From the NCBI GenBank assembly GCA_963784785.1, contig CAWASW010000003.1, positions 51,216 through 115,215 on the forward strand: DNA of 64,000 bases, in the 5' to 3' direction. The first letter of the stretch is position 1, and every line of letters begins with the position of its first letter. Positions 2 to 51,318 of the stretch are shown here, in pieces. The notes under the pieces are model-generated. The model ran no database searches and had not been told where the DNA came from. It saw only the letters and a list, made by a program, of their open reading frames with translations. Both the position numbers and the translations under genes were made by a program. Source of the DNA: Candidatus Woesebacteria bacterium (lineage in GTDB: Bacteria > Patescibacteriota > Microgenomatia > UBA8517).

Positions 2-853
2 ATACAAGAAGAAGGGGAAAACCAATTAGGGCTTAAAGTTTTATCACTCCACGCCTTAATGAAAGTTATTATGGGTCAAATAACTCCAACCCAAGAAGCA
101 ATGCTAGATCGTGCTTTAATTATGACTTATAAAGCAAAGGGAATAACCAATGATCCTATTACTCAAACAAAAGAACCTCCTTTAATGGAAGATCTTTACA
201 AAACTTTAATCGGTATGGAAGTTCCAGAAGCTTTAGATTTGGCAGCGCGAATCGAAAAGTTTATAAGGGGATCTTTCCAAGGAATTTTTGACAAGCAAAC
301 AAATATCGACCTTGATAATCCATTTACAGTTTTCTCAGTTAAGGATATACAGGATGCTATCCGCCCTATTGTCATGTTTATGATTCTTGACTATATCTGG
401 ACTAGAGTTAAAAGAGATATCAAAAGAAGAATATTAATTGTTGAAGAGGCGTGGCAGATGATGAAATATCCAGACACCGCACAATTTTTATGGTCTGTTG
501 TCAAACGTGCAAGAAAATACTACCTAGGGCTTACTACAATAACTCAAGACGTTGAGGATTTCCTTGGACAAGACATTGGGAAGGCAATTGTTACAAACTC
601 TGCTTTAAGGCTATTACTAAAGCAATCACCAACAGCCATAGACAAACTAGGGGAGATATTCTATTTATCACAGGGTGAGAAACAACTATTAATGGCAGCA
701 AACGTCGGGGAAGGAATATTCTTTGCAGGACCTCATCATGCTCCAATCAGAATTGTTGCCAGTGAGGCAGAACATGCTTTAATTAACACAAAACCACAAG
801 ACAATCCAACTCCTACAATGCCTAATACTAAGGCGTGGAATAGACAAGAATAG
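2..853 (+). CDS. VirB4/TraC/CagE-family type IV secretion ATPase, C-terminal part. The reading frame is open to the window edge, so the gene is 5'-truncated by the window.
   Basis: Walker-B-like 'ILIVEEAW' (the DEAW box of VirB4) followed by 'GLTTITQ' (the ATQS-like motif). There is no stop between position 2 and the first ATG at 59. Confidence 0.6.
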   Translation: MQEEGENQLGLKVLSLHALMKVIMGQITPTQEAMLDRALIMTYKAKGITNDPITQTKEPPLMEDLYKTLIGMEVPEALDLAARIEKFIRGSFQGIFDKQTNIDLDNPFTVFSVKDIQDAIRPIVMFMILDYIWTRVKRDIKRRILIVEEAWQMMKYPDTAQFLWSVVKRARKYYLGLTTITQDVEDFLGQDIGKAIVTNSALRLLLKQSPTAIDKLGEIFYLSQGEKQLLMAANVGEGIFFAGPHHAPIRIVASEAEHALINTKPQDNPTPTMPNTKAWNRQE

Positions 854-855
854 TT

Positions 856-3456
856 ATGAATAAAGTATTAGCAGATATTTTAGAAAGACCTGTACCAAAA
901 GGGTTAACTGTTACAAAAGTAAAGAGCTTAATCCAAGATGTTGCAAAACTTGATGAACAACCTAAATTAGTTTATTCATCAAATGGAGAAAAGATATTAG
1001 GTGAACTAAATAAATATGGTGCAAAAGATATTCCTCAAAATTACAGAGGCGTTTTACTAGAACACTGGCTTGAAATACTATCACAAACTCAAGAAACAAT
1101 TACTGAGGTACCGAGACCCACGGGACCAGAAGCAACGACTTTAACTTCGGATCAATTAGAAAATCTTGGAGAACAAGCTGACGAACAGAAAAGAAAATAC
1201 AATCAAACAGTTAAAAACCAAAAAGAGGCTGTGGATAAATTCAAAAAAGCAGGAGAGAAAAGATATCAAGACCAACAGAAAGAAAAACAGACTCAAGAAT
1301 TATTAAATCAATTTTTCAAAGCAAAAGTTGTTGTTGTTCCAACTGAAGAAATTCCTGAAGTAAAGCTTTCAAAAGAAAACAAAGAAACATTAATAGCTGC
1401 TGAGACGGCCGCAAAAGAAGATCCTTTTACAACGAAAAAAATTTTTGAAGAAAAAATCAAAGAGGCCTTAAGTAAGACAGAACAAGAGTATAAAGACACT
1501 GTATCAAATGAATCAATTGAGAAAACAGCAACGCATCTAGTAGAGCAACTTAGAACTTTGCCGGATCATAAAACAGTGGATGATATTTCTGATTCTCCTA
1601 AGGCATTGAATATGCTTTCTATATTAAATCCTTTATCAGATCCCGACAGCGAACAAATGAAGAAAATTATTCCAGACAAAGAGGCAAGAAAAAAGTTTGC
1701 ACGAGAAGTCCAAACTTTATTATTAGCCACAGAAGCAGAAAGAACTGTTAACCTCGCAGGAGCAAAAGCTATTTTTGGGGAAAATATTGCATATTCTTTA
1801 TACGGAACAGATGCTATTACAGCTTTTCAAACTTCTAGCGAAGAAAAAGATAGTGAAGAGGGCGTAGAGATTAGTCCAAGAGATGTGTATGAAAAAGGGA
1901 AACAGATTTCTGATTTTATTAACAAAATAAAGGGATTCAGAAATGCTGAAGAAGTTACATCGACAGGACTAGCATATTATCCAACATATGGTTATTCAAA
2001 CGCAGCAGTAGCAACAAGAACTGCTTCCGCTCTCACAAAAGCACTACCTGCGGTTGGTGCAGTTTATGGATTTAAACAAGGGTTAATCTTGTCTCAATGG
2101 GCGAGGTCAGGAACACCACTTTTATCCGCTGGAAATCAGAATCTTGTTAGACTCCTAACATCACAGGCAGGAGTGCAAGAAATTGCGTCTGCTTCAATGG
2201 TTACATTTTCAAATCCAATTGGTTTTCAATTAGGCAAATTTTCAATCGGCATTGCAACTGGTGCAAATCAAGCAACCGGAACACAAATTGCAATAGGAGG
2301 TATTAGATTTGGGGAGAAAATGGCAGGGGCAATTGCAGTAAAAGGAGGTACACAAGTTGCAATAGTTACAGGAACTCAAGCAGGTGCTCAATTGGCTGTA
2401 GGAACATCAACAATATTAACTAAAGTTTTGACCTTTGTTGGAGGACTAAGTAGCTGGGCAACTTTTGGACTAAGTGCAATCGGTGGATATTTATTAGGAA
2501 AGATAATTGAAAAAGGTCCACAGATAAAAAAGTGGTTTAGTGAAAATGCTCCTGTACTAATAAGCATAGCAAGTCTTGGAGGATTGGCTTTTGGAGGACC
2601 TGGGGTTGGATTCGCTACATTAGGCGTTGGACTTGCGATTACTGGAACACTTGGATCTTTTGCAGCTGGGGCATTTGGAGTTTTAGGTTTTATAGGCAGA
2701 TCAATTGGTGTTGCAATCGCGACACCTGTAATTATTACGCTACTAGTTATACCTTCCCTTGTAGCTTTTATCATGTTAGTGATCAATAATTCCGCCTACG
2801 TTGTTCCACCAGCGCCAGTCGCAGAATCTGGCTTCGATATAGGACAAGACGGTTTTGAATGCACAACTGAAAAAACACCAACAACGATTACATCAAGTTC
2901 AACAGGAAGTTCAGCAATAGCAGAAAGAGCATGGGGAATAATGGAAGATATGTACCAAGGATTTTGGTGTTATTGGAACAGATCACCTGGTGATTTTCCA
3001 ACAGACACAGTTGAACATCCAGAGTCATATCCTGAGTTATTTGATGAAAAACTATATGCAATAACAACAAATCCAACAAGGCAACAAGTTCAATCAAGTG
3101 GGGAAGTATTATTTTGGTGCACGTGGCTCATTCAAAAATCATATGGCGAAAATGGTAACAACATAGCAAACACATTATGGTCACCGACAATGTTCAATGA
3201 CTTCAAAAATCGAAAAAAAATGTTAGAAGGAAATGAGATGACATTTGATAACATAAAATCTGGAGCAGTTATATTTTTTGACATTAAAAATTCTCTAGAT
3301 AGAGTAGATCATGTAGGAATTGTTCATACAATAACTCCCGCTGGAATAAAATTTTTACAATCTAATGCCGGAACAAAAGATGGTTTCTTACCAATTATTA
3401 ACGGGGTACTTCAAAGTCCAAGTTACGCTACAATAAAAGGAGTAGGGAACCCATGA
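856..3456 (+). CDS. Large membrane protein with a charged coiled-coil N-terminus, a Gly-rich multi-TM core and a C-terminal CHAP/NlpC-P60-like cysteine peptidase domain. It is probably the cell-wall hydrolase of the T4SS or conjugation apparatus.
   Basis: The C-terminal region has a Cys ('FWCTWLIQKSYG') and a His ('DHVGIVHTI') spaced as in CHAP domains. There are long Gly/Ala/Thr-rich hydrophobic segments. It is adjacent to and co-oriented with the VirB4-like ORF, which it follows after a 2-bp gap. Confidence 0.5.
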   Translation: MNKVLADILERPVPKGLTVTKVKSLIQDVAKLDEQPKLVYSSNGEKILGELNKYGAKDIPQNYRGVLLEHWLEILSQTQETITEVPRPTGPEATTLTSDQLENLGEQADEQKRKYNQTVKNQKEAVDKFKKAGEKRYQDQQKEKQTQELLNQFFKAKVVVVPTEEIPEVKLSKENKETLIAAETAAKEDPFTTKKIFEEKIKEALSKTEQEYKDTVSNESIEKTATHLVEQLRTLPDHKTVDDISDSPKALNMLSILNPLSDPDSEQMKKIIPDKEARKKFAREVQTLLLATEAERTVNLAGAKAIFGENIAYSLYGTDAITAFQTSSEEKDSEEGVEISPRDVYEKGKQISDFINKIKGFRNAEEVTSTGLAYYPTYGYSNAAVATRTASALTKALPAVGAVYGFKQGLILSQWARSGTPLLSAGNQNLVRLLTSQAGVQEIASASMVTFSNPIGFQLGKFSIGIATGANQATGTQIAIGGIRFGEKMAGAIAVKGGTQVAIVTGTQAGAQLAVGTSTILTKVLTFVGGLSSWATFGLSAIGGYLLGKIIEKGPQIKKWFSENAPVLISIASLGGLAFGGPGVGFATLGVGLAITGTLGSFAAGAFGVLGFIGRSIGVAIATPVIITLLVIPSLVAFIMLVINNSAYVVPPAPVAESGFDIGQDGFECTTEKTPTTITSSSTGSSAIAERAWGIMEDMYQGFWCYWNRSPGDFPTDTVEHPESYPELFDEKLYAITTNPTRQQVQSSGEVLFWCTWLIQKSYGENGNNIANTLWSPTMFNDFKNRKKMLEGNEMTFDNIKSGAVIFFDIKNSLDRVDHVGIVHTITPAGIKFLQSNAGTKDGFLPIINGVLQSPSYATIKGVGNP

Positions 3457-4121
3457 AGAAAAAGATATTAATCTTAGCAGGAACAATATTGGCATTTTTT
3501 TTTATATATTTATTATTAAATAATAAGAAAACTCCAACAGAATTACCCATAGCTGTTATATCTACAATACCAAAAAACAATGCTTTTTTTGTAAATGAAA
3601 AATCTGAAGTAGTATTAACTTTAAATAGAACAATAATAAATACAGAGGGAGAGAAAATAAAAATTGAGGTAGAACCAGATGTAAAAACTAAAATCGTGTA
3701 TCTCACTAATAAAATTAGAATATCACCTGAGACAGAATTCGGTATTAATATAGAATATAAAATTTCAGTAAAATACAATGAAAATTTGATTTATACATTA
3801 AATTTTAAAACCAATCCTTTTTCAAAAGAACAAACAAAAGAGGAGGGAGGAAAGCAATCAATAGGTGACGCTGCATTTAATGAATCTTATGACAAATTTT
3901 TAAAAGATTTTCCTTGGTATAGAAAAATCCCAATAGAAAGAAAAGATTATACAATTGTATATGATTTCGAATTATTGTCATTTAGAATAATAATGAACAG
4001 GAAAATAGACGACGAGCTTGATAAAACAGGTATAAAAAATGCAGCTATTAACGATTTGTTAAAAATCGGGGTTAAATTACCAATTAAAAATATTGTTGTA
4101 CAAGAAGTTAAAAATAATTAA
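3453..4121 (+). CDS. Hypothetical membrane-anchored protein (N-terminal TM/signal). The last gene of the putative T4SS operon.
   Basis: Has an ATGA start/stop overlap with the upstream gene. N-terminus is 'KKKILILAGTILAFFFIYLLL'. Confidence 0.45.
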   Translation: MKKKILILAGTILAFFFIYLLLNNKKTPTELPIAVISTIPKNNAFFVNEKSEVVLTLNRTIINTEGEKIKIEVEPDVKTKIVYLTNKIRISPETEFGINIEYKISVKYNENLIYTLNFKTNPFSKEQTKEEGGKQSIGDAAFNESYDKFLKDFPWYRKIPIERKDYTIVYDFELLSFRIIMNRKIDDELDKTGIKNAAINDLLKIGVKLPIKNIVVQEVKNN

Positions 4122-5227
4122 GTACTTTTGATAGGCATGATTATATGAAGGAAGTTTGAAGATTTGGAATCTAAAAACTTTGAGGCTTTGTTGTCACTAG
4201 CGAATATTATTTTTACTTCATCATCTGTTATGACTTTTAAGACATCTTCTACAAATGAGTAATTAAACATAATATTTATCTCTGATTCTATTTTTTCTTC
4301 TGATCGAATTTCTACACTTGTTTCCTGATTCCCTGATGAGCTACTTTCTGCAGTTATTCGTAATTCATCATTCATAATTCGTAATTTAATGATTTTTCCC
4401 GAGTCCCTTGCAAAAACTGAGGCCAGTTTAATTGATTTTTCAAGTTCTGCTTTATCTACATTTATTTCAGCAATGGATGAAGTAGGGATGATCTTTTCAT
4501 AATCGGGGAATTCACCTTCAATTATTCGAGACGAAAGGGTAGTATCACCAATTGCAAAGATTATTTGATTGCTTTCTTTGTCAAAGGAAACTTCTATTGA
4601 ATCTGAATCTGCTGCAATCTTTGTAAGCTCATACAAAACAGTTTTAGGTATAATTATTTTCAAGTCTTCAATATTTATTTCGCTTTTAAGCTTAACTTCA
4701 GAAAGTCTAAAACCATCTGTTGCTACTAGCTTTAAAGTTTTATTCGTAAATACAAACAAAACTCCAGTTAGAATAGGTCTTGTTTCATCAGTTGAGACTG
4801 CAAACAGCACTTTTGATAGAGAATTTACAAGTTCTTCTCTACTAAGAGCAAACTTATTTTTACCTGATTCCTGAGGAAGACTTGGAAAATCTGCAGAGTT
4901 CGAGCCTAAAACATTTGACTTAAATTTACCTGATGTAATTTTAATCTGCTCTTGAAAAGATTCAATTTCAATAGAGCCAGATGATAAATTAGAGATAACA
5001 TCATTAAAAGTTTTACCATTAACTGTAATTTCACCTTCTTCTTCAATTTTTGCGGCAATTGCTGTTTTAACTGAAATCTCTAAATTAGTAGAGGAGAGTG
5101 TTAATTTCGTTTTGTCTGTCTTTAATAGGATGTTTCCTAATATTGGAAGTTGTGCTTTAGGTGAAGTGAAGTGTGATGTAAGACTAACTGCATTTTTCAA
5201 GTTTTCTTGTAAGACCGTCAATTTCAT
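4118..5227 (-). CDS. dnaN: DNA polymerase III beta subunit (sliding clamp)
   Basis: 369 aa with a beta-clamp-like sequence, 'MKLTVLQENLKNAV...'. It is divergent from dnaA across a DnaA-box cluster. Confidence 0.9.
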   Translation of the reverse strand: MKLTVLQENLKNAVSLTSHFTSPKAQLPILGNILLKTDKTKLTLSSTNLEISVKTAIAAKIEEEGEITVNGKTFNDVISNLSSGSIEIESFQEQIKITSGKFKSNVLGSNSADFPSLPQESGKNKFALSREELVNSLSKVLFAVSTDETRPILTGVLFVFTNKTLKLVATDGFRLSEVKLKSEINIEDLKIIIPKTVLYELTKIAADSDSIEVSFDKESNQIIFAIGDTTLSSRIIEGEFPDYEKIIPTSSIAEINVDKAELEKSIKLASVFARDSGKIIKLRIMNDELRITAESSSSGNQETSVEIRSEEKIESEINIMFNYSFVEDVLKVITDDEVKIIFASDNKASKFLDSKSSNFLHIIMPIKST

Positions 5228-5269: not shown

Positions 5270-5375
5270 AGGCTGTGGATAAGATGATAACAGCTATAAG
5301 CTAGGCAGGGGATAAATAGTGGATAAAACTGTGGATAACTGTGGACAAGTTGGGGATAAGTGGATATCATTAAAA
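5270..5375. promoter_or_regulatory. oriC: oriC-like cluster of about 7 co-oriented DnaA boxes (TGTGGATAA and one-mismatch variants) between dnaA and dnaN.
   Basis: ctgTGTGGATAAg, GGGGATAAA, GTGGATAAA, TGTGGATAAc, TGTGGACAA, GGGGATAAG and GTGGATATC lie within ~110 bp. An AT-rich stretch follows. Confidence 0.7.
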
Positions 5376-5383
5376 AGTTATCT

Positions 5384-6751
5384 TCAAAGAGATTTTTTTA
5401 TCCCCATGATGTCCTCTTGGATATCCACATTAGTTGAGAGTAAATTGGTTATCTTTTCCACAGAGTTCATTACAGTTGAATGATCTCTTCCTACAATCCT
5501 TCCTGTTTCTTGAAGAGACAATCTTAAATATACTCGAAGTAAATACATTACAATCTGCCTTGGCCTTACTATTGGAAGCTGTCTGGAGTCCCCTAGAAGC
5601 TGTCTTTTCCCAATTGAATAGTATTTACATACTTTATTTATTAAATTTTCTGGATCTATTTTTATTCTGACCTCATCTGCCTCACTTGCCTTTCCTAAAA
5701 GTGATTCTATTAATTCTGAAGTCACTTCTTTTTTGTTAAAATTTACTTCTGTAAAGAGTTTAACCAAAAAACCTTGTATTCCTCTAGCTGAATCGATATT
5801 TCCAGCGACCATTGCCACCATTTCGTTTGTCAGCATAATTCCCCTTTCTTCTGACTTAATCTGCACAATGGCTGAACGAAGTTCAAAATCAGGTGGAGCA
5901 ACGTCCACTATTAAACCTGCTTGAAATCTGGTTTTTAATCTTGCTTCTAGTTTTGATATTTCAGTTGGTGGTTTGTCAGAAGTAAGTATTACCTGCCCTC
6001 CAGCTGAGGTGACCGCATTAAAGGTGTGAAAGAATTCTTCTTGTGCAGTATCTTTCCCCGCAATAAACTGAATGTCATCAATAAAAAGGGCGTCAAGTTT
6101 CCTGTATTTTTTACGAACTTCTGCTGTTGTTTTATTTCTGATCCCGTCGACGATATCGTTGGTAAAGTCTTCGGCAGTACAGGCTAAAATTTTGGCTGAA
6201 GTATTTTTTAAAATCATGCTATGCCCTACTGCATGCATTAAATGAGTTTTACCAACTCCAACACCTCCATATATGAAAAGTGGATTATAGGAAACTCCTG
6301 GGTTATCAGCCACAGCTTGTGCAGCTGCATAGGCCATTTGATTACTGCCTGAAACAGCAAATTTATCAAAAGTAAAAAGCATTCTCAAATTTGCTTTTTT
6401 AACGGCCTCATTTACTGCCTCAGTATTAATTTTGGGAATATCAAAAAGAGGAGATAGAGATTCGGAATTAGGATTGAGTTGTTGTTTTGACGCTTTAACT
6501 ACAAAAGTTACGTCCACTATCTTTTCTAGTTGTTTAGTAAGTGTGTCTTGAAATAATCCAGAATATCTCTGTTCTATTTGCTGTTTTGTAAAAATAGAGT
6601 CGCATCCTACCTCTGCAATTATTCTATCCCCTACTTCTTTTAAATCAATTAAATGAGTGTGAGACAAATACGTTTTGTAAGCTGCATCAGAAACAGAAAT
6701 ACGTAAAGTCTCTAGTGTGTCTTTCCAAATCTTGTTAAAATCTTGTTTCAT
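5384..6751 (-). CDS. dnaA: Chromosomal replication initiator protein DnaA
   Basis: Walker A 'GGVGVGKTHLMHAVG', AAA+ box 'LFIDDIQF', and a C-terminal DNA-binding domain. Confidence 0.95.
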   Translation of the reverse strand: MKQDFNKIWKDTLETLRISVSDAAYKTYLSHTHLIDLKEVGDRIIAEVGCDSIFTKQQIEQRYSGLFQDTLTKQLEKIVDVTFVVKASKQQLNPNSESLSPLFDIPKINTEAVNEAVKKANLRMLFTFDKFAVSGSNQMAYAAAQAVADNPGVSYNPLFIYGGVGVGKTHLMHAVGHSMILKNTSAKILACTAEDFTNDIVDGIRNKTTAEVRKKYRKLDALFIDDIQFIAGKDTAQEEFFHTFNAVTSAGGQVILTSDKPPTEISKLEARLKTRFQAGLIVDVAPPDFELRSAIVQIKSEERGIMLTNEMVAMVAGNIDSARGIQGFLVKLFTEVNFNKKEVTSELIESLLGKASEADEVRIKIDPENLINKVCKYYSIGKRQLLGDSRQLPIVRPRQIVMYLLRVYLRLSLQETGRIVGRDHSTVMNSVEKITNLLSTNVDIQEDIMGIKKSL

Positions 6752-23531: not shown

Positions 23532-25177
23532 CCTGACTTCGCCAATTAAGTGCCCTGAATAAAAGATAGAAGTTTGGTATTTTTAAGAAGTTGAAGTTGC
23601 TCTGTTGTTGGTTCTGTAAATTTTGATATTTCTTCATTTGAGATTTTGTCTTTGATAGTAATTTCTTTTAAGCTTGATAGAATTTGTAGTATCTTTTTTG
23701 TGCTTTTGTTGTTTTTAATTTCTGCATATCTTGTAATTGCAAGACTGGTAAAAACAATTAACATGTGGGTTAATATTTTTTCTTTGGCTGTATGAAATAT
23801 TGGTCTAGCTTGGAGGTCTGATTTTGTGATTCTAAATGCCTTTTCAACTTGCCAGAGTTCTTGATATTTGGTAATTATTTCTGTGTTTGTTAATTCTAGT
23901 GCATTTGTAACATAACCTTTTAAGCCTTCAAGCTGTTCTGCTTTTTTAAGTTTAGCTTCATTTATTTTCCATTCTTTTTTAATTCCCTTTTCTTTTTTTA
24001 GAAATTTGTAGTTTTTAGTTAAGTTGCTTGGATTATTTAGTGCATAATTTGCTCTTTTTAATTGTTTTTCTCTGTCTGATTTGTCTTTTGATGCTCTTTT
24101 GACTGAGTAGTTGATAATTAAAAATTTAGTTTTTGTAAGTTCAAATCTTTCTGTAGAGCCATCTATTTTAGGTACACTAATTACTTTTTCAAAAATAGTT
24201 TTGTCTAAATTACCAAGTCTTGCTCCAACTATAAACTTTAAGTTTTCTTTTTCCAATTCATCTGTATTTTTCTCACTTAACATACCAGCATCTGCAACAA
24301 GAATAATGTCTTTCAAGGAATGCTTTTTGATGAGGTCTTTCATTACAGGAAGCATTGTGTGGCCTTCAAAAGTATTTCCTTCAAAAGCCTGCATATGAAC
24401 AGGGAAACCTTGTTTTGTGACTGTTAAGGAAACAACTATTTGAGGTTGATTTGATTTTTTGTCTTTTGAAAAGCCATTTTTTCTAAAATCATCTTCTGTA
24501 AAAGATTCATAATATAAAGTTGTGACATCAAAAAATAAAACTGAAATTACAGATGAAATATTTGTTTTGGCAAAATTAAATAACAAATCCTCAACTATCT
24601 CTTTGTAGCCACCATCAAAGGCTTTTTTCATGCCTCTGTAGATTTCTGTAAGTGAGTATTTGTGATTTAATTTCTCTTCAAGATAATTTCTAGTTTCAAG
24701 TTTTGAAGTTGGATTTAAAATTCTTGCAATAACAAGATCCTTAAAACAATTGTCTTTTAAGTCATTTAAACCTAAAAAATGATAGTAAAAATCAAAAAAA
24801 TTGTAAGAGACAGTATCCATTACTTTGCCAAAAGTTACCTTTGAAAGTAGCTCTTTAAGTTCAGATTGATTAAATCTGTTGTCAAAAAGTGAAATTCTTC
24901 CTTCTTTGATACGACAATCATCAATGTATTTTAAGCCTAATTTTGTAAGTTCAATTAGCTCCAACTCATTTCTTGCAGTTCCAATGTGCTTCACTATTTT
25001 TCTTCTTCCTGAAACTTTTTGGGCAACTTGAACTGATGTATTAGATTTGTTTTTGACCTTTCTTAAGTACATTCAAACCTAATTTTAGCAAATAAAACAG
25101 TAAGTGCCCTAAAGTACATAAAAATACAAACAATTAGCCTCAAGAAGTTACATAAAAACTAGGTTGGCGAAGTCAGG
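23532..25177 (-). mobile_element. IS1634-family (IS4-related) insertion sequence, 1646 bp, copy 1. Has 12-bp terminal IRs (CCTGACTTCGCC) and is flanked by a 62-bp direct repeat of the MFS gene 3' end.
   Basis: Perfect terminal inverted repeats, a long TSD characteristic of IS1634-type elements, and an identical second copy at 44410-46055. Confidence 0.75.
23546..25072 (-). CDS. DDE transposase of the IS1634-like element (508 aa)
   Basis: Identical to the ORF at 44424-45950. Large IS4-superfamily-like transposase. Confidence 0.7.
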   Translation of the reverse strand: MYLRKVKNKSNTSVQVAQKVSGRRKIVKHIGTARNELELIELTKLGLKYIDDCRIKEGRISLFDNRFNQSELKELLSKVTFGKVMDTVSYNFFDFYYHFLGLNDLKDNCFKDLVIARILNPTSKLETRNYLEEKLNHKYSLTEIYRGMKKAFDGGYKEIVEDLLFNFAKTNISSVISVLFFDVTTLYYESFTEDDFRKNGFSKDKKSNQPQIVVSLTVTKQGFPVHMQAFEGNTFEGHTMLPVMKDLIKKHSLKDIILVADAGMLSEKNTDELEKENLKFIVGARLGNLDKTIFEKVISVPKIDGSTERFELTKTKFLIINYSVKRASKDKSDREKQLKRANYALNNPSNLTKNYKFLKKEKGIKKEWKINEAKLKKAEQLEGLKGYVTNALELTNTEIITKYQELWQVEKAFRITKSDLQARPIFHTAKEKILTHMLIVFTSLAITRYAEIKNNKSTKKILQILSSLKEITIKDKISNEEISKFTEPTTEQLQLLKNTKLLSFIQGT

Positions 25178-26377: not shown

Positions 26378-26853
26378 GTATAGTTTGTGGCATACTTGAG
26401 GGAAATGTTAAAGTACTGGCATGGTGCACACACAAAGCACAGAATTATGATTCATTTGGTATTTTTACCAAAATACAGAAAAAGGATATTACGTGGCAAA
26501 GTAGCTACAAGACTTAAAGACTTATTCTTCAAAGCATGTGAGGTTAACAACTGGTGGATTGAAGAAATTACAATATTGCATGATCATGTACATATGCTTA
26601 TACAAATCCAACCAAACTTGTCCATCTCAAAAGTTGTTAACCAACTGAAAGGTGGTTCATCAAGAATCTTAAGGAAAGAATTTCCAGAGTTAGAAGAATT
26701 TCTTTGGGGTGACTCATTCTGGTCTGATGGCTACTTTGCAGAATCAGTGGGTGCAACAAGTTTCATCCAGGTTAAAAAATACATTAAAAATCAAGTGGAA
26801 AGTATGCCACAGAAGGGGTAAAACCATGGCATTTATGCCATGTGTTTTTTATT
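26331..26853 (+). mobile_element. IS200/IS605-family element (TnpA only), copy 1, ~523 bp
   Basis: Left-end hairpin CCAGCC-TTTA-GGCTGG and right-end hairpin CATGGCAT-TT-ATGCCATG. Three identical copies are in the window. Confidence 0.8.
26387..26821 (+). CDS. tnpA: IS200-type HUH (Y1) transposase TnpA
   Basis: 'ILHDHVHMLIQ' HUH motif and the catalytic Tyr in 'SDGYFAESVG'. 144 aa. Confidence 0.9.
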   Translation: MAYLREMLKYWHGAHTKHRIMIHLVFLPKYRKRILRGKVATRLKDLFFKACEVNNWWIEEITILHDHVHMLIQIQPNLSISKVVNQLKGGSSRILRKEFPELEEFLWGDSFWSDGYFAESVGATSFIQVKKYIKNQVESMPQKG

Positions 26854-27955: not shown

Positions 27956-28672
27956 ATGAAAATAATTTTTCTTAATTGTTATAGTGGTCATCTTGAAAAA
28001 GCACTTTTGGATTTTATTTCACTTGTGAATGAAGATGCTGACATTTTATGTTTTCAAGAAGTTTCTGTGAGTTTAGAAAAAAAGATTTCTCATATTTTGG
28101 TAAATTATTCAAAATCCTTTGAAATAGGTTTTTTACTTTCGGACTGCAACGAAGAAGCGGGTCAAGCAATTTACGTCAAAAAGGATCTTGCTATCATAAA
28201 ATCTGAAAAGATATTGCTACACGAATTAAAAATGAGGGATATTGGTTTTTTACTAAAGGTTGATATCAAGATAAAAAACAAAATATTATCTGTGGGTAAT
28301 GTGCACGGAACTGCTGCACCTGGTGATAAGAAAGATACAGATTCTAGAATTGAGCAATCAAATTTGATTTTAAATAGTTTCGAAACTAAAGGGAATATAA
28401 TAATTGGTGGAGACTTCAACTTGTTGCGCAATACACAAAGTGTAGAAGTATTCGAGAAACTAGGGTATAAAAATTTAATTAATGATTTTAATATTAAGTC
28501 CACAAGAAATAATATTGCTTGGGAAAGATTCAAAAATGATCCTGGTTTTGTAAAACAGTTTGACTCAGATTATATTTTTGCTTCAGATGGTATAAAAATA
28601 AAAAGTTTTGAAGTGCCTGATGTCGAAGTCTCCGATCACCTACCTCTAATTTTAGAGTTTGAAGTTTCTTGA
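27956..28672 (+). CDS. Endonuclease/exonuclease/phosphatase (EEP) family protein
   Basis: 'IIGGDFNLL' and the C-terminal 'SDHLPL' EEP motifs. Confidence 0.7.
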   Translation: MKIIFLNCYSGHLEKALLDFISLVNEDADILCFQEVSVSLEKKISHILVNYSKSFEIGFLLSDCNEEAGQAIYVKKDLAIIKSEKILLHELKMRDIGFLLKVDIKIKNKILSVGNVHGTAAPGDKKDTDSRIEQSNLILNSFETKGNIIIGGDFNLLRNTQSVEVFEKLGYKNLINDFNIKSTRNNIAWERFKNDPGFVKQFDSDYIFASDGIKIKSFEVPDVEVSDHLPLILEFEVS

Positions 28673-28751: not shown

Positions 28752-30692
28752 ATGACAGCAGATCACAGACCAATCACTACTTTTGGAATTCGACCTCGAG
28801 AGTTTACTTCACTTCAAATATTGAATCAGATTGAAAAGACACAGAGACAAACTGAAAATTTAAGAGGCATGCTTTTGCAACCACAACCAGAAATCACAGT
28901 AAATATTGATGCCAGTCAACCAGTCAGAATCATAGAGGTATCAGACACACATTTGTTTACTGCTCTAACTAATTACGACTCTGTGAGAAAACTTTTTAAA
29001 AAATTTGAAGACCCCTATACATTGATGGTAGTGTGCGGTGACTTTTTGGAATTTGCTAATCCTGGAATAGGATCTCATATTGGTGAGGTTATGCTGTCTG
29101 GTGGAGATCAAATGAGATTAGGCAAAAAGTTTTTGAGGCAATATGCAGAAAGCGGTCAGTTATTAGGAATGGTGGCTGTGTTTAATGGGCATGAAGGTTG
29201 GGCAGAGAAAAATGCAACCATTAACGCAGTAGTTAATATGGCTGATGACTTGTATCATCCAGACGGTTCACCGGTGCAAACACTTATTAACGGTGGTGAC
29301 ATTGTCATTAAATTGCCAAATAAAAAAATATTTAGATTTAGTGAATTTCATAACGCTGGCGTTGGTGGATCGGATGATATTAATCCTCTTGGGTCAGAGA
29401 GATACCAAGGATGGAAAAGACCATTAAATTCTGACGATAGGGCTGATGCAGTTGTTGGTGGGCATATGCATCATAGAGCTGCAGTAAGCAAGGAACGTGT
29501 TTTAAATAAATTGAATGGTAAAACAGAAACAATTGTTTACATGGCTTTGGGAACGCATAAATCCATTGAAAGAAAAAAGCCTGACGGTTTTATCAATGCC
29601 ATGGGTAAGGAAGAAAACAAAAAACCTGGCGCTGGTATTGTTCTAAATTTTAGTAACTCGGAACATTCTTCTTGGACGACCTTTGGATATGACAAACTTG
29701 GTCATATGTATAGAGCTGCAAAACTTTGGGATAAAGCGGAGAGAAGCGGAATTACAGAAGAATTGCATCAAAAAGTTATGGACAGAAATCCAAAACCTGA
29801 AATTAAATTTGAGAGATCAAAATCTAGAGCTCAAACTAACGAAGACGATGAAGTCAAAGTCCCGTTGTTTGAGCTGGCGAGATGGAAATCTTCAAACGGT
29901 GAATTACCGGTGGCAGTATATTTTTTAGGTAACGCTAGATATGGAAGTACAAGTGGAGAGCGAGATAGAGAAAAGTTTAAAGCTGTTGTAAATATTGTGT
30001 CAAAAAACAATCTCGCTTGTTTAGTTGGAATGAGGCATCTAATTGACAACGGAGTGGGATCTCTACTTGATAGAAAAGGTGTGCTCTCCGAAATGGCTGA
30101 TGATTTGAGACCGGCCTATGACTCTAATTCACTGTTGGGTATTGTGTTATCATCTTCGCTTAGAAATAATGCGTGGAAGAGAGATCTAAAAGATGATGGT
30201 AAAGTCTACCCAGGGTTCTTACCTGGTAATTTGCTATATAAAAAGCTGTTGCCAAAAACACCACTGCTTTTAAATGAATCAATTTTGACGTTTGCTATGA
30301 ATGGTTTTGAATATAACATGCTTTTGATGGATAGGTTGCAAGGATCTGGGAGTTTCTTTGATCCATTTAGGGGACTTGTTCAATCTCACAGGAAAACTCA
30401 ACTTGGTTTGGATGTTGTTGCCGGAGGACATATGATGGGTTCAGGATTCATGCAAACTGAAAAAACTGTGTATATTGCACCAGGATGGTTTTCAGATTTT
30501 GATTCAGGTGGAAAAGGAAATCAAAAGAGAGTTACAGAAGGTGGACAGGCAGTTATACTTTTACCAAAAGATAAAGGCGTAATTCCTGCGTCGTCTCTTA
30601 CTGAAGCCGTTGATATTCACACTGCTTTAACTTTGAAGTTTGGATTAACTGATAAAGAAAAGGCTTCGTTAATGAGACGAAAAGTTAGATAA
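28752..30692 (+). CDS. Large calcineurin-like metallophosphoesterase. The N-terminal MPP domain has complete motifs and the C-terminal half is a degenerate second MPP-like domain.
   Basis: 'SDTH', 'CGDFLEF', 'NGHEG' and 'GGHMHH' in the N-terminal half; 'GNARYG' and 'AGGHMMG' in the C-terminal half. Confidence 0.55.
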   Translation: MTADHRPITTFGIRPREFTSLQILNQIEKTQRQTENLRGMLLQPQPEITVNIDASQPVRIIEVSDTHLFTALTNYDSVRKLFKKFEDPYTLMVVCGDFLEFANPGIGSHIGEVMLSGGDQMRLGKKFLRQYAESGQLLGMVAVFNGHEGWAEKNATINAVVNMADDLYHPDGSPVQTLINGGDIVIKLPNKKIFRFSEFHNAGVGGSDDINPLGSERYQGWKRPLNSDDRADAVVGGHMHHRAAVSKERVLNKLNGKTETIVYMALGTHKSIERKKPDGFINAMGKEENKKPGAGIVLNFSNSEHSSWTTFGYDKLGHMYRAAKLWDKAERSGITEELHQKVMDRNPKPEIKFERSKSRAQTNEDDEVKVPLFELARWKSSNGELPVAVYFLGNARYGSTSGERDREKFKAVVNIVSKNNLACLVGMRHLIDNGVGSLLDRKGVLSEMADDLRPAYDSNSLLGIVLSSSLRNNAWKRDLKDDGKVYPGFLPGNLLYKKLLPKTPLLLNESILTFAMNGFEYNMLLMDRLQGSGSFFDPFRGLVQSHRKTQLGLDVVAGGHMMGSGFMQTEKTVYIAPGWFSDFDSGGKGNQKRVTEGGQAVILLPKDKGVIPASSLTEAVDIHTALTLKFGLTDKEKASLMRRKVR

Positions 30693-34411: not shown

Positions 34412-34939
34412 CTAATCCTGTTTTGTTTTATTATCGGCCTTCATTTTTTCAAAGTTGTAATAATATACAAACCATTTAAGGTAACTTTCCCAACGAGTCT
34501 TTTTAAGGCCTTTATGTCTTAACCATCTTTGTCCTATATGCCCAAATGTAGCTTCAATTTCATTTGTTGTTTTTGGCATAGTTGGGTGGTCTAAAAACTT
34601 GAATGAGGTTTTTGGAAGTTTAATTAGGATCCTGACAGCTTTTCTCACACCTTTATGAATATACCAACTGTGGCCAGAATCATCTGTCCTCATCTCTTTC
34701 AGAAAGAAGAAATTAGCCTTAACCCAATCTTTTAAGATTGTTTCCCAGTATTTCAAAGCTTCATGACTTTCTATGAACCAAATGTGGTTTGCAATTTTTA
34801 TTAATTCTTCAATTCTTCTATCTTTTGAGTGTCTACCAAGTGCATTTACAATATCTCTATGCATATGAGCAAGACATATCTGATGTGGAGAGTGGGGGAT
34901 ACACTTCATCAACCGCAGAACAAATGGCAGTTCCTCCAT
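34412..34939 (-). CDS. IS1-family transposase, C-terminal ORF (overlaps ORF1 in another frame; probable programmed frameshift)
   Basis: See the mobile element. Confidence 0.55.
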   Translation of the reverse strand: MEELPFVLRLMKCIPHSPHQICLAHMHRDIVNALGRHSKDRRIEELIKIANHIWFIESHEALKYWETILKDWVKANFFFLKEMRTDDSGHSWYIHKGVRKAVRILIKLPKTSFKFLDHPTMPKTTNEIEATFGHIGQRWLRHKGLKKTRWESYLKWFVYYYNFEKMKADNKTKQD

Positions 34940-44409: not shown

Positions 44410-46055
44410 CCTGACTTCGCCAATTAAGTGCCCTGAATAAAAGATAGAAGTTTGGTATTTTTAAGAAGTTGAAGTTGCTCTGTTGTTGGTTCTGTAAATT
44501 TTGATATTTCTTCATTTGAGATTTTGTCTTTGATAGTAATTTCTTTTAAGCTTGATAGAATTTGTAGTATCTTTTTTGTGCTTTTGTTGTTTTTAATTTC
44601 TGCATATCTTGTAATTGCAAGACTGGTAAAAACAATTAACATGTGGGTTAATATTTTTTCTTTGGCTGTATGAAATATTGGTCTAGCTTGGAGGTCTGAT
44701 TTTGTGATTCTAAATGCCTTTTCAACTTGCCAGAGTTCTTGATATTTGGTAATTATTTCTGTGTTTGTTAATTCTAGTGCATTTGTAACATAACCTTTTA
44801 AGCCTTCAAGCTGTTCTGCTTTTTTAAGTTTAGCTTCATTTATTTTCCATTCTTTTTTAATTCCCTTTTCTTTTTTTAGAAATTTGTAGTTTTTAGTTAA
44901 GTTGCTTGGATTATTTAGTGCATAATTTGCTCTTTTTAATTGTTTTTCTCTGTCTGATTTGTCTTTTGATGCTCTTTTGACTGAGTAGTTGATAATTAAA
45001 AATTTAGTTTTTGTAAGTTCAAATCTTTCTGTAGAGCCATCTATTTTAGGTACACTAATTACTTTTTCAAAAATAGTTTTGTCTAAATTACCAAGTCTTG
45101 CTCCAACTATAAACTTTAAGTTTTCTTTTTCCAATTCATCTGTATTTTTCTCACTTAACATACCAGCATCTGCAACAAGAATAATGTCTTTCAAGGAATG
45201 CTTTTTGATGAGGTCTTTCATTACAGGAAGCATTGTGTGGCCTTCAAAAGTATTTCCTTCAAAAGCCTGCATATGAACAGGGAAACCTTGTTTTGTGACT
45301 GTTAAGGAAACAACTATTTGAGGTTGATTTGATTTTTTGTCTTTTGAAAAGCCATTTTTTCTAAAATCATCTTCTGTAAAAGATTCATAATATAAAGTTG
45401 TGACATCAAAAAATAAAACTGAAATTACAGATGAAATATTTGTTTTGGCAAAATTAAATAACAAATCCTCAACTATCTCTTTGTAGCCACCATCAAAGGC
45501 TTTTTTCATGCCTCTGTAGATTTCTGTAAGTGAGTATTTGTGATTTAATTTCTCTTCAAGATAATTTCTAGTTTCAAGTTTTGAAGTTGGATTTAAAATT
45601 CTTGCAATAACAAGATCCTTAAAACAATTGTCTTTTAAGTCATTTAAACCTAAAAAATGATAGTAAAAATCAAAAAAATTGTAAGAGACAGTATCCATTA
45701 CTTTGCCAAAAGTTACCTTTGAAAGTAGCTCTTTAAGTTCAGATTGATTAAATCTGTTGTCAAAAAGTGAAATTCTTCCTTCTTTGATACGACAATCATC
45801 AATGTATTTTAAGCCTAATTTTGTAAGTTCAATTAGCTCCAACTCATTTCTTGCAGTTCCAATGTGCTTCACTATTTTTCTTCTTCCTGAAACTTTTTGG
45901 GCAACTTGAACTGATGTATTAGATTTGTTTTTGACCTTTCTTAAGTACATTCAAACCTAATTTTAGCAAATAAAACAGTAAGTGCCCTAAAGTACATAAA
46001 AATACAAACAATTAGCCTCAAGAAGTTACATAAAAACTAGGTTGGCGAAGTCAGG
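44410..46055 (-). mobile_element. IS1634-family IS copy 2 (1646 bp), nested in the IS1-like element with a 52-bp TSD (44358-44409 and 46056-46107)
   Basis: CCTGACTTCGCC IRs and an identical 508-aa transposase (44424-45950). The 52-mer 'aaaacttcctagatttgatc...gatactgcatat' is duplicated. Confidence 0.75.
44424..45950 (-). CDS. DDE transposase of IS1634-like copy 2
   Basis: 100% identical to the 23546-25072 product. Confidence 0.7.
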   Translation of the reverse strand: MYLRKVKNKSNTSVQVAQKVSGRRKIVKHIGTARNELELIELTKLGLKYIDDCRIKEGRISLFDNRFNQSELKELLSKVTFGKVMDTVSYNFFDFYYHFLGLNDLKDNCFKDLVIARILNPTSKLETRNYLEEKLNHKYSLTEIYRGMKKAFDGGYKEIVEDLLFNFAKTNISSVISVLFFDVTTLYYESFTEDDFRKNGFSKDKKSNQPQIVVSLTVTKQGFPVHMQAFEGNTFEGHTMLPVMKDLIKKHSLKDIILVADAGMLSEKNTDELEKENLKFIVGARLGNLDKTIFEKVISVPKIDGSTERFELTKTKFLIINYSVKRASKDKSDREKQLKRANYALNNPSNLTKNYKFLKKEKGIKKEWKINEAKLKKAEQLEGLKGYVTNALELTNTEIITKYQELWQVEKAFRITKSDLQARPIFHTAKEKILTHMLIVFTSLAITRYAEIKNNKSTKKILQILSSLKEITIKDKISNEEISKFTEPTTEQLQLLKNTKLLSFIQGT

Positions 46056-46868
46056 AAAACTTCCTAGATTTGATCAAACTTTGTCTGGAAGAATTGATAC
46101 TGCATATCTTTTGATTGATGGGCTTTGGTTTGGAAGATGGTTTGTCTTGATGCTGTATAGACAAAGTGGAACTTTGTACCTTTTGCATGTATCTATTGCT
46201 GGTAGAGAGGCTTCAACAAAAATAGTTAAGGATTTGAGGTTCATAAAGGAGGAATTAAAATACACATTTTCAGGCTCTGTAACAGATGGAGGAACTGCCA
46301 TTTGTTCTGCGGTTGATGAAGTGTATCCCCCACTCTCCACATCAGATATGTCTTGCTCATATGCATAGAGATATTGTAAATGCACTTGGTAGACACTCAA
46401 AAGATAGAAGAATTGAAGAATTAATAAAAATTGCAAACCACATTTGGTTCATAGAAAGTCATGAAGCTTTGAAATACTGGGAAACAATCTTAAAAGATTG
46501 GGTTAAGGCTAATTTCTTCTTTCTGAAAGAGATGAGGACAGATGATTCTGGCCACAGTTGGTATATTCATAAAGGTGTGAGAAAAGCTGTCAGGATCCTA
46601 ATTAAACTTCCAAAAACCTCATTCAAGTTTTTAGACCACCCAACTATGCCAAAAACAACAAATGAAATTGAAGCTACATTTGGGCATATAGGACAAAGAT
46701 GGTTAAGACATAAAGGCCTTAAAAAGACTCGTTGGGAAAGTTACCTTAAATGGTTTGTATATTATTACAACTTTGAAAAAATGAAGGCCGATAATAAAAC
46801 AAAACAGGATTAGAAAAACAACACATTAGTTCCATTAAGCCGAAAAATAAGAATATTAAATACTAATT

Positions 46869-49410: not shown

Positions 49411-49933
49411 TTAAATCTTCTGCACATTAATCCCCAGCCTTTAGGCTGGTGGAGCAAGTATAGTTTGTGGCATACTTGAGGGAAATGTTAAAGTACTGGC
49501 ATGGTGCACACACAAAGCACAGAATTATGATTCATTTGGTATTTTTACCAAAATACAGAAAAAGGATATTACGTGGCAAAGTAGCTACAAGACTTAAAGA
49601 CTTATTCTTCAAAGCATGTGAGGTTAACAACTGGTGGATTGAAGAAATTACAATATTGCATGATCATGTACATATGCTTATACAAATCCAACCAAACTTG
49701 TCCATCTCAAAAGTTGTTAACCAACTGAAAGGTGGTTCATCAAGAATCTTAAGGAAAGAATTTCCAGAGTTAGAAGAATTTCTTTGGGGTGACTCATTCT
49801 GGTCTGATGGCTACTTTGCAGAATCAGTGGGTGCAACAAGTTTCATCCAGGTTAAAAAATACATTAAAAATCAAGTGGAAAGTATGCCACAGAAGGGGTA
49901 AAACCATGGCATTTATGCCATGTGTTTTTTATT
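49411..49933 (+). mobile_element. IS200/IS605-family element copy 2
   Basis: Identical to copy 1 over ~523 bp. TnpA is at 49467-49901. Confidence 0.8.
49467..49901 (+). CDS. tnpA: IS200-type transposase TnpA
   Basis: Identical 144-aa product. Confidence 0.9.
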   Translation: MAYLREMLKYWHGAHTKHRIMIHLVFLPKYRKRILRGKVATRLKDLFFKACEVNNWWIEEITILHDHVHMLIQIQPNLSISKVVNQLKGGSSRILRKEFPELEEFLWGDSFWSDGYFAESVGATSFIQVKKYIKNQVESMPQKG

Positions 49934-50795: not shown

Positions 50796-51318
50796 TTAAA
50801 TCTTCTGCACATTAATCCCCAGCCTTTAGGCTGGTGGAGCAAGTATAGTTTGTGGCATACTTGAGGGAAATGTTAAAGTACTGGCATGGTGCACACACAA
50901 AGCACAGAATTATGATTCATTTGGTATTTTTACCAAAATACAGAAAAAGGATATTACGTGGCAAAGTAGCTACAAGACTTAAAGACTTATTCTTCAAAGC
51001 ATGTGAGGTTAACAACTGGTGGATTGAAGAAATTACAATATTGCATGATCATGTACATATGCTTATACAAATCCAACCAAACTTGTCCATCTCAAAAGTT
51101 GTTAACCAACTGAAAGGTGGTTCATCAAGAATCTTAAGGAAAGAATTTCCAGAGTTAGAAGAATTTCTTTGGGGTGACTCATTCTGGTCTGATGGCTACT
51201 TTGCAGAATCAGTGGGTGCAACAAGTTTCATCCAGGTTAAAAAATACATTAAAAATCAAGTGGAAAGTATGCCACAGAAGGGGTAAAACCATGGCATTTA
51301 TGCCATGTGTTTTTTATT
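50796..51318 (+). mobile_element. IS200/IS605-family element copy 3
   Basis: Identical to copies 1 and 2. TnpA is at 50852-51286. It lies 34 bp from the tRNA 5' end and ~25 bp from the IS481-like right IR. Confidence 0.8.
50852..51286 (+). CDS. tnpA: IS200-type transposase TnpA
   Basis: Identical 144-aa product. Confidence 0.9.
   Translation: MAYLREMLKYWHGAHTKHRIMIHLVFLPKYRKRILRGKVATRLKDLFFKACEVNNWWIEEITILHDHVHMLIQIQPNLSISKVVNQLKGGSSRILRKEFPELEEFLWGDSFWSDGYFAESVGATSFIQVKKYIKNQVESMPQKG

Follow-up and report, generated by a model that had tools for sequence, protein, structure and literature searches.

A probable type IV secretion-like operon beside dnaN in a Woesebacteria-like bacterium includes a membrane protein with an exchangeable tail

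The 64-kb window (the whole stretch of DNA that was analysed) begins with the end of a virB4-type ATPase gene, a gene for an 866-aa membrane protein and a gene for a 222-aa protein that runs into dnaN. We consider it likely that this segment, positions 2–4121, makes up the distal half of an operon that resembles a type IV secretion system (T4SS), is chromosomal and has been inherited vertically, in a Woesebacteria-like member of the Microgenomatia within the candidate phyla radiation (CPR). Comparison with relatives showed that the C-terminal tail of the 866-aa protein, a predicted wall hydrolase, and the gene behind it are exchanged jointly, as a 1.3-kb cassette, between close relatives. Such cassette exchange of a T4SS wall-hydrolase subunit looks unreported in the literature. 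That the system exists, how widespread it is and that it sits close to the origin were known before, and here the window adds nothing new; what it offers is a concrete, testable handle on T4SS function, namely the unannotated membrane protein encoded after virB4 in Microgenomatia.

Gene order and conservation of the cluster

Coordinates are window positions unless prefixed with a locus handle such as L001; a position on L001 equals the window position plus 4542. The features that carry the argument are listed below.

2–853, plus strand: partial open reading frame (ORF), open at the window start, for the C-terminal 283 residues of a VirB4-type ATPase (profile and structure matches)
440–454, plus strand: VEEAW, the Walker B-like ('DEAW-like') box of VirB4, aligning with VDEAW of 4AG5 (sequence)
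856–3456, plus strand: 866-aa T4SS-linked membrane protein with a variable, predicted C-terminal hydrolase domain (ORF, homologues)
856–1965, plus strand: N-terminal hydrophilic region of the 866-aa protein, residues 1–370 (composition, hydropathy, alignment)
1102–1173, plus strand: conserved N-terminal motif TEVPRPTGPEATTLTSDQLENLGE of the same protein, residues 83–106 (two family alignments)
1996–2811, plus strand: its Gly/Ala-rich membrane core, residues 381–652 (hydropathy, composition)
2782–2811, plus strand: its anchor motif INNSAYVVPP (invariant alignment columns, DNA breakpoint)
2812–3456, plus strand: its variable C-terminal tail, residues 653–866, here a CHAP-like, putatively papain-fold peptidase (profile, homologues, model)
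3118–3120 and 3310–3312, plus strand: predicted catalytic Cys755 and His819, together with Asn837 (alignment, model)
3453–4121, plus strand: 222-aa predicted signal-anchored protein with an immunoglobulin (Ig)-like, Big_5-like extracytoplasmic domain (ORF, homologues)
2812–4118, plus strand: swappable cassette of ~1.3 kb, tail plus downstream gene (co-variation, sister genomes, DNA breakpoints)
4118–5227, minus strand: dnaN (ORF; Pfam DNA_pol3_beta match on the identical L001 gene)
5274–5359, no strand assigned: five DnaA boxes, probable oriC, in the dnaN–dnaA spacer (box density and gene order)
5384–6751, minus strand: dnaA (ORF; the L013 and L015 orthologues have Bac_DnaA matches)

The genes are tightly packed. 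The virB4 stop codon ends at 853 and the ATG of the 866-aa gene lies at 856, leaving the 2-bp gap that the initial annotation had recorded, and the 222-aa gene overlaps both the 866-aa gene and the convergent dnaN by 4 nt. It encodes the small membrane protein which, according to the same annotation, closes the operon against dnaN and oriC. Searching with TTATCCACA at 0–1 mismatch, we found five DnaA boxes within 86 nt (5274–5359) and three more at 5398–5462; the whole 64 kb holds 30. Judged by box density and gene order, the cluster of boxes in the dnaN–dnaA spacer probably marks the origin, which would then lie ~1.2 kb from the end of the T4SS cluster. Beyond dnaA follow rpmH, rnpA, yidD, yidC and a jag-like gene, all on the plus strand.

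The nearest relatives of the window are metagenome-assembled genomes (MAGs) of Candidatus Woesebacteria or Microgenomates, and we compared 19 loci from such genomes: that of the window, 13 further ones (11 species representatives and two contigs) and five partial contigs. The order prgI–trsD–virB4–large protein–small protein–dnaN–dnaA is the same in the 13 further loci, and the five contigs agree with it as far as each reaches; with the cluster at the same site in 19 of 19 loci, no presence/absence variation was seen. Because homologues reach E=0 and the gene order is conserved, we regard the genes as genuine and not as chance ORFs. The C-terminal half of VirB4 is 87–97% identical to that of the window in 11 of 13 comparison loci, where DnaA shows 64–86% and DnaN 48–79% identity. 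For the two most distant genomes (three loci), the values are 78% and 61% for VirB4, 43–54% for DnaA and 32–43% for DnaN. Constraint of this strength on VirB4 is unusual in a 'secretion' ATPase and would agree with its being essential.

The surroundings were also inspected for hallmarks of mobility. There is no tRNA gene and no att site at the locus, and no relaxase or type IV coupling protein (T4CP) among the window ORFs; the flanks upstream of the cluster in relatives likewise lack both of these and an integrase. The initial annotation had spoken of a full T4SS, which the data do not show: VirD4, a relaxase, a recognisable VirB8 and a pilin were not found in the 59 kb downstream or in the ~5–10 kb upstream in relatives.

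Two observations on the data set stand apart from these comparisons. ARAGORN reported no tRNA or tmRNA gene in the entire 64-kb window. Moreover, several MAGs with the cluster (L003, L004, L005, L010, L011, L012) are filed under the title 'uncultured Gammaproteobacteria bacterium'; with a typically CPR gene order and a DnaA that reaches 85% identity to that of the window, they look mislabelled.

VirB4 and the genes upstream

The ATPase fragment at 2–853 is assigned by its profile matches to VirB4 and not to FtsK/HerA, in agreement with the initial annotation, which had described a VirB4/TraC-type ATPase with a DEAW-like box (VEEAW, at 440–454). Its top NCBIfam matches are all VirB4, TraC or TrbE, with conju_CD1110 (NF045971) at E=1e-47 and 162.8 bits, the F-type TraC at E=2e-28, the Mycoplasma-ICE VirB4 at E=1e-25 and VirB4_CagE at E=5e-18. 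In Pfam, it matches P-loop_TraG (PF19044) at E=1e-18 (67.4 bits, cut-off 25.8), and the best solved structure is Thermoanaerobacter VirB4 (PDB 4AG5, E=2e-30). The 162.8 bits on the CD1110 model reflect the fragment being partial, as the full-length VirB4 (1,177 aa, on L001) reaches 343.7 bits with a cut-off of 325. Among the other ATPases considered, FtsK/HerA models do not compete with the VirB4 families, and VirD4-type/CedD models match only at E >= 1e-8, as determined with an intein-free VirB4 orthologue.

The upstream part of the operon became visible on L001, a 9,866-nt contig retrieved by an exact-protein look-up, which is identical to the window over the 201 nt aligned and whose 866-aa product translates identically. 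It adds two genes, one PrgI/VirB3-like and one TrsD-like, and completes virB4, which starts 3.5 kb upstream of the window. The PrgI/VirB3-like protein (349 aa, L001 1–1050) matches PF12666 with 28.0 bits (cut-off 27) and ends in a CarboxypepD_reg-like beta-sandwich. The TrsD/TraC-like protein (249 aa) has a precomputed PF26593 match and resembles the N-terminal region of VirB4, its matches to NCBIfam TrsD (E=1.5e-5) and to the VirB4 N-terminal region (E=8e-7) both lying below threshold. The initial annotation had named two outcomes that would overturn it, a lack of further T4SS genes upstream and an ATPase of the FtsK/HerA type; what emerged was a set of upstream T4SS genes and an ATPase assigned to VirB4.

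VirB4 is itself interrupted. An intein of 584 aa with a LAGLIDADG homing endonuclease splits the Walker A motif (GAGK/S…HN/SYF, slashes marking the junctions), which would read GAGKS once the intein is spliced out. It occurs at the same position in three of the 14 loci compared (L001 2627–4378, L002 7227–8978, L013 7219–8967), with 74–87% identity among the copies. A survey of 2015 counted VirB4 inteins as rare, with five cases in Firmicutes and Proteobacteria (PMC4760082), and a survey of Patescibacteria T4SSs makes no mention of them (PMC12102498).

Further upstream, relatives carry two additional genes. Preceding prgI, and conserved in eight loci (L013 496–2154; homologues in L003, L004, L005, L006, L008, L015), is a gene whose ~550-aa product combines a signal peptide with at least seven strongly hydrophobic helices. 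This product has no Pfam, NCBIfam or PDB match and could be the VirB6 that is 'missing' from Microgenomatia. The second gene upstream of prgI, on the opposite strand, encodes a divergent soluble protein of ~470–860 aa, likewise without a family match.

The conserved part of the 866-aa protein

Besides a sub-threshold CHAP match in its tail and an insignificant one to Spx (E=0.24), the 866-aa protein has no Pfam or NCBIfam family. A word-indexed search returned 20 homologues (best E=0), and an exhaustive profile search with residues 1–655 returned 398 representatives at E<=1e-3, 257 of them at E<=1e-10. Nearly all are 800–1,000 aa long, and in the loci examined the gene always lies directly after virB4. 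These figures define an annotation gap, with ~400 representative proteins lacking a family assignment for the core. A giant version of ~1,917 aa with an M23-like tail was seen in L010 (5324–11077) and L011 (5330–11080), which are near-identical contigs of one MAG assembly.

The N-terminal region (residues 1–370) lacks a signal peptide and is presumed to be cytoplasmic; residues 100–260 are K/E-rich (29%). Residues 380–655 contain ~29% Gly and Ala, with hydrophobic helices at ~513–647, and a Kyte–Doolittle scan of the core yielded ~4–5 Gly-rich, weakly hydrophobic segments and a single strong one at 625–643. The region has 10 GxxxG motifs compared with ~6 expected from composition, and 'glycine zipper', the term used in the initial annotation, should be read as a description only. 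The hydrophobic helices end in the near-invariant …TPVIVTLLVLPPLVAFIMLVINNSAYVVPP, and INNSAYVVPP comprises the last conserved residues of the family, forming the left cassette boundary. A K-rich loop at residues 545–562, ahead of the last helices, suggests that the C-terminus lies outside the cell. The centre of the core is itself a mosaic of at least two variants, which are independent of the tail type. An AlphaFold model of the core shows beta-hairpins followed by long helices, but its pLDDT of 42.6 makes it unusable.

The CHAP-like tail and its alternatives

The tail of the window protein falls below the Pfam CHAP threshold, and its assignment as a CHAP-like Cys/His peptidase, first made in the initial annotation, is supported because relatives pass that threshold: P0021 (62% identical) scores 29.8 bits, P0023 (45% identical) 37.5 bits, and the family member P0057 27.1 bits. 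Cys755, His819 and Asn837 are invariant in five aligned sequences. In a structure model of the tail, the Cys is located at the start of helix 99–110 and the His at the start of strand 164–172 (domain numbering), a placement that, as modelled, is papain-like. The mean pLDDT of this model is 55.6, with the first 100 residues poor and values of 70–90 over the last ~90. Top Foldseek matches in the PDB, with weak E-values, are CHAP domains, namely the E. coli Gsp amidase structures 3A30 and 2IO8 (probability 1.0), PlyPy 5UDM and Ly7917. Neither the 866-aa protein nor any of nine further members of the family matched an SLT, lysozyme or glucosaminidase family at E<=1.

Classifying the sequence after the anchor motif in 138 representatives resulted in six tail types, given here with their numbers and Pfam matches.

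Ig-like plus HExxH: 50 representatives; none
M23: 37 representatives; Peptidase_M23
CHAP-like (the type of the window): 25 representatives; CHAP, some above threshold
Amidase_2: 12 representatives; Amidase_2
Ig-like plus M23-like: 11 representatives; weak Peptidase_M23
Second CHAP: three representatives; weak CHAP

The commonest type, found in 50 of 138 (P0002, P0004 and P0008 among them), has an Ig-like domain and, behind it, a domain in which an HExxH motif is invariant; this second domain belongs to no Pfam family and may represent an undescribed zincin-like wall peptidase.

Tail and neighbouring gene are exchanged as one cassette

The 222-aa protein encoded behind the tail has a hydrophobic segment at residues 5–23, and six of its 10 homologues have a precomputed PF13205 match. 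All 18 downstream proteins share the same beginning, a K-rich N-terminus followed by one hydrophobic segment, and this combination with a single anchor indicates that they are signal-anchored and extracytoplasmic. Types A (that of the window) and D of these proteins have weak Big_5 Ig-like matches; the other types are without a family.

Clustering tails and downstream proteins separately, we observed a 1:1 correspondence in 17 of 18 loci, the single exception being a divergent tail with an HExxH-type partner. The distribution of cassettes does not follow phylogeny, as four pairs of nearest relatives differ in their cassette.

L002 and L007: VirB4 C-half 99.4% identical; M23 and HExxH tails
L013 and L016: VirB4 C-half 99.1% identical; HExxH and Amidase_2 tails
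L015 and L017: VirB4 C-half 97.9% identical; HExxH and CHAP tails
L008 and L009: VirB4 C-half 96.7% identical; M23 and HExxH tails

DNA similarity to relatives ends at codon 652 (window 2811, L001 7353, the end of YVVPP) and returns at the dnaN stop codon (window ~4119), both breakpoints being sharp. Tail and next gene are thus exchanged together. That hydrolase and neighbour are swapped while VirB4 is almost frozen suggests that the cell-wall interface is under diversifying pressure. The 222-aa protein most likely acts on the tail as its cognate inhibitor, regulator or immunity partner. Elsewhere in the window, neither orphan cassettes nor paralogues were found.

In some relatives, additional genes lie between the cassette and dnaN. 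HepT/MNT-type toxin–antitoxin genes and an AAA ATPase were seen there (L015 13610–15725, L002 14046–15470, L007 10661–11474), and these insertions indicate that the junction is also an insertion hot spot.

Proposed working and alternative explanations

In the working that we propose, VirB4 would be held at the membrane by the VirB3-like protein and would power assembly or transport. The 866-aa protein would combine a cytoplasmic N-terminal region and a membrane core with an extracytoplasmic CHAP peptidase (Cys755/His819), which may cut peptide stems or cross-links of peptidoglycan at the site of the machine. The tail would then provide a VirB1-type wall opening, as PrgK, TraG of pIP501 and CwlT do in Gram-positive conjugation, and the wall being cut could be that of the cell itself or that of a host. 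Neither a relaxase nor a coupling protein was found nearby. In line with proposals made for other Patescibacteria, the T4SS probably serves a host-dependent lifestyle rather than conjugation. The initial annotation had offered a host-interaction apparatus as one of two options, and this option is in line with the current view in the literature.

The other option was a conjugative element, either resident or a remnant, with its remaining genes upstream. It draws on the best VirB4 matches, which are conjugation families (CD1110, Mycoplasma ICE, TraC), and on insertion sequence (IS) elements elsewhere in the window. An integrative and conjugative element (ICE) would, however, hardly keep one chromosomal position and gene order in 19 loci whose DnaN is merely 32–79% identical, nor would its VirB4 be expected to be under stronger constraint than DnaA and DnaN; relaxase, T4CP, integrase, tRNA and att site were not found at the locus, and no more than 103 of 3,035 Patescibacteria genomes contain a relaxase (PMC12102498). 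We therefore rate the ICE explanation as highly improbable and close to refuted. A different proposal concerns the core: its Gly/Ala-rich part might be a divergent channel subunit of the VirB6/PrgH type, fused to a VirB1-type hydrolase. The position immediately after virB4 and the several hydrophobic helices at residues 513–647 agree with this, as do the report that VirB6 homologues are 'scarce' in Microgenomatia, where divergence has been suggested (PMC12102498), and the precedent of 'extended VirB6' proteins with large hydrophilic domains (PMC12857230). The profiles do not bear it out, as there is no VirB6, TrbL or PrgH match in Pfam or NCBIfam for the 866-aa protein and nine other family members, and a profile search against PDB sequences was negative. 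In addition, the core model is too poor for a fold comparison, and the ~550-aa polytopic protein of relatives (at least seven helices, eight loci) looks the better candidate, leaving a VirB6 identity of the core rather unlikely.

A further explanation refines the T4SS reading and does not exclude it. The 866-aa protein might be a polymorphic effector, its variable tail being aimed at the wall of a host bacterium and displayed or released by the T4SS, with the downstream protein providing immunity. Several observations would fit such an arrangement: the conserved N-terminal part stops sharply at INNSAYVVPP and is followed by unrelated enzyme domains, tail and downstream-gene types match 1:1 with one exception among 18 loci, four sister pairs (VirB4 C-half 96.7–99.4%) carry different cassettes, and DNA similarity breaks at codon 652 to return at the dnaN stop. 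Furthermore, all 18 downstream proteins are predicted to be extracytoplasmic, where an inhibitor of a wall hydrolase must sit. Peptidoglycan-hydrolase effectors of type VI (T6SS) and type VII (T7SS) secretion systems and of the Xanthomonas T4SS have adjacent, extracytoplasmic immunity genes. On the other hand, the tail forms part of a presumably polytopic membrane protein with no evident mechanism of release or cleavage, orphan cassettes are absent from the window, a cognate regulator or scaffold would co-vary equally well, no host is known, and the commonest tail type (HExxH) has no assigned activity. We thus regard the effector explanation as possible but tentative, and extend the same reserve to its fuller form, in which the T4SS carries a polymorphic subunit whose enzyme domain and cognate partner are recombined between the anchor motif and dnaN and act as an effector–immunity pair against the host wall. 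If this were true, the essential T4SS of Patescibacteria would be a host-breaching device under arms-race selection.

Returning to the T4SS-like operon as the preferred explanation, a number of points weigh against it or limit it. The core of the 866-aa protein matched no known T4SS subunit in profile searches or in a search of PDB sequences, and its role has been assigned by position only, because it has no detectable relative and no usable model. The score of the protein on Pfam CHAP (PF05257) is 19.6 bits with a threshold of 26 (E=1.3e-3), the Foldseek matches to CHAP domains are weak (E ~5e-3, TM-score 0.25–0.30, 76–104 aligned columns), and the tail model is confident only over its final portion of ~90 residues. 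The roles given to the members of the family are predictions. The view of the own genome upstream ends with L001, and genes for VirD4, a relaxase, pilins or a VirB6-like protein could lie elsewhere. Finally, the clade placement of VirB4 draws on the MPF-FATA-type CD1110 model and the nearest relatives only.

Other features of the window

The remainder of the window is an otherwise housekeeping stretch in which IS genes occur in identical copies, amounting to a high IS load for a reduced genome.

23546–25072 and 44424–45950: 508-aa DDE transposase, two copies
26387–26821, 49467–49901 and 50852–51286: 144-aa protein, IS200/IS605-type TnpA-like by motif only, three copies
34412–34939 and 46286–46813: 175-aa IS66-like fragment, two copies
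51298–52398: rve-type integrase

A 646-aa ORF (28752–30692) has no Pfam match at E<=0.001 and shows metallophosphoesterase-like motifs by eye (GDxxE, GHMHH); it adjoins a gene of the endonuclease/exonuclease/phosphatase family (27956–28672).

Comparison with known systems

The initial annotation had characterized the 866-aa protein as a PrgK/TraG-style component. As a functional analogy this stands: in common with PrgK (pCF10), TraG (pIP501) and CwlT (ICEBs1), it is predicted to be a membrane-anchored peptidoglycan hydrolase encoded inside a T4SS operon, with a Cys/His peptidase domain of the CHAP or NlpC/P60 type and a presumed wall-opening role for the machine. As a statement of membership, it fell short. 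PrgK, TraG and CwlT additionally possess a domain of the lytic transglycosylase or muramidase type (PMC12102498), whereas none is detectable in the 866-aa protein; they have one N-terminal anchor, in contrast to a ~370-aa N-terminal region and a putatively multi-helix, Gly/Ala-rich core that have no detectable counterpart in them. No similarity was found outside CHAP, in a comparison that did not set the sequences directly side by side. Since it lacks a lytic transglycosylase or lysozyme domain, the 866-aa protein is best viewed as a functional analogue of these hydrolases and not as a member of their group.

Polymorphic toxins, as known in general from CdiA/CdiI, Rhs, LXG and the T6SS or Xanthomonas T4SS pairs, resemble the family in their architecture: the N-terminal part, which serves delivery, is conserved, as is a short boundary motif, the enzyme domains at the C-terminus are unrelated to one another, and an adjacent, cognate small gene is exchanged along with them. 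They differ in that the carrier here is an integral membrane protein encoded within a T4SS operon, with no sign of secretion, toxicity or orphan cassettes, and immunity is a prediction only. A further parallel in domain architecture is a patescibacterial operon described in a domain survey by Burroughs et al. (2025), in which one coiled-coil scaffold, anchored in the membrane, bears either a papain-like or an M23 peptidase and is accompanied by a transmembrane protein with Ig-like domains, a VanZ-2 protein and an ABC ATPase transporter (PMC12419801). Shared with the window family are the alternative papain-like and M23 domains on one membrane-anchored N-terminal scaffold and a neighbouring transmembrane protein with an external beta-sandwich domain. 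VanZ-2 and ABC ATPase genes were not found here, and the two scaffolds could belong to the same family or to different ones.

The nearest framework is the MPF-FATA-derived T4SS clade of Patescibacteria, of which the window cluster is probably a member. The initial annotation had considered a T4SS uncommon in a CPR genome, which the survey of Quinonero-Coronel et al. (2025) contradicts: 2,417 of the 3,035 Patescibacteria genomes surveyed have VirB4, and 2,425 VirB4 proteins group in a single clade within the monoderm MPF-FATA class (PMC12102498). According to this survey, the genes most often found beside virB4 encode TrsD and PrgI/VirB3 homologues, only 103 genomes have a relaxase, and in Microgenomatia and Paceibacteria virB4 lies near dnaN, dnaA, rnpA and rpmH (PMC12102498). 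It further notes that VirB1 homologues seldom adjoin virB4, and that the scarcity of VirB6 homologues in Microgenomatia is 'suggesting extreme sequence divergence' (PMC12102498). In a perspective of 2024, the role of the Patescibacteria T4SS is called 'completely unknown' (PMC11665869).

Set against this clade, the window cluster differs in several respects. The stretch seen lacks a VirB2-like pilin array as well as any recognisable VirB6 or VirB8. The predicted hydrolase, in place of a separate VirB1-like protein, forms the C-terminal domain of membrane proteins of ~900 aa, a family not described in the survey; this domain is exchanged with the gene behind it as one cassette, and virB4 bears an intein. 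Common to both are the PrgI/VirB3-like and TrsD-like genes beside virB4, the chromosomal site with no relaxase or coupling protein nearby, and the dnaN/dnaA neighbourhood, as reported for Microgenomatia. In the Saccharibacterium Southlakia epibionticum, so far the single species examined in this respect, epibiotic growth requires the T4SS genes SEML1_0006–0019 (Wang et al., 2023, PMC10633639; PMC12857230), and this system, too, has no recognisable relaxase or coupling protein (PMC10633639, PMC12857230). The likeness extends to the arrangement at the heart of the present analysis, as wall hydrolases, predicted in the case of the window, are encoded directly 3' of virB4 in both.

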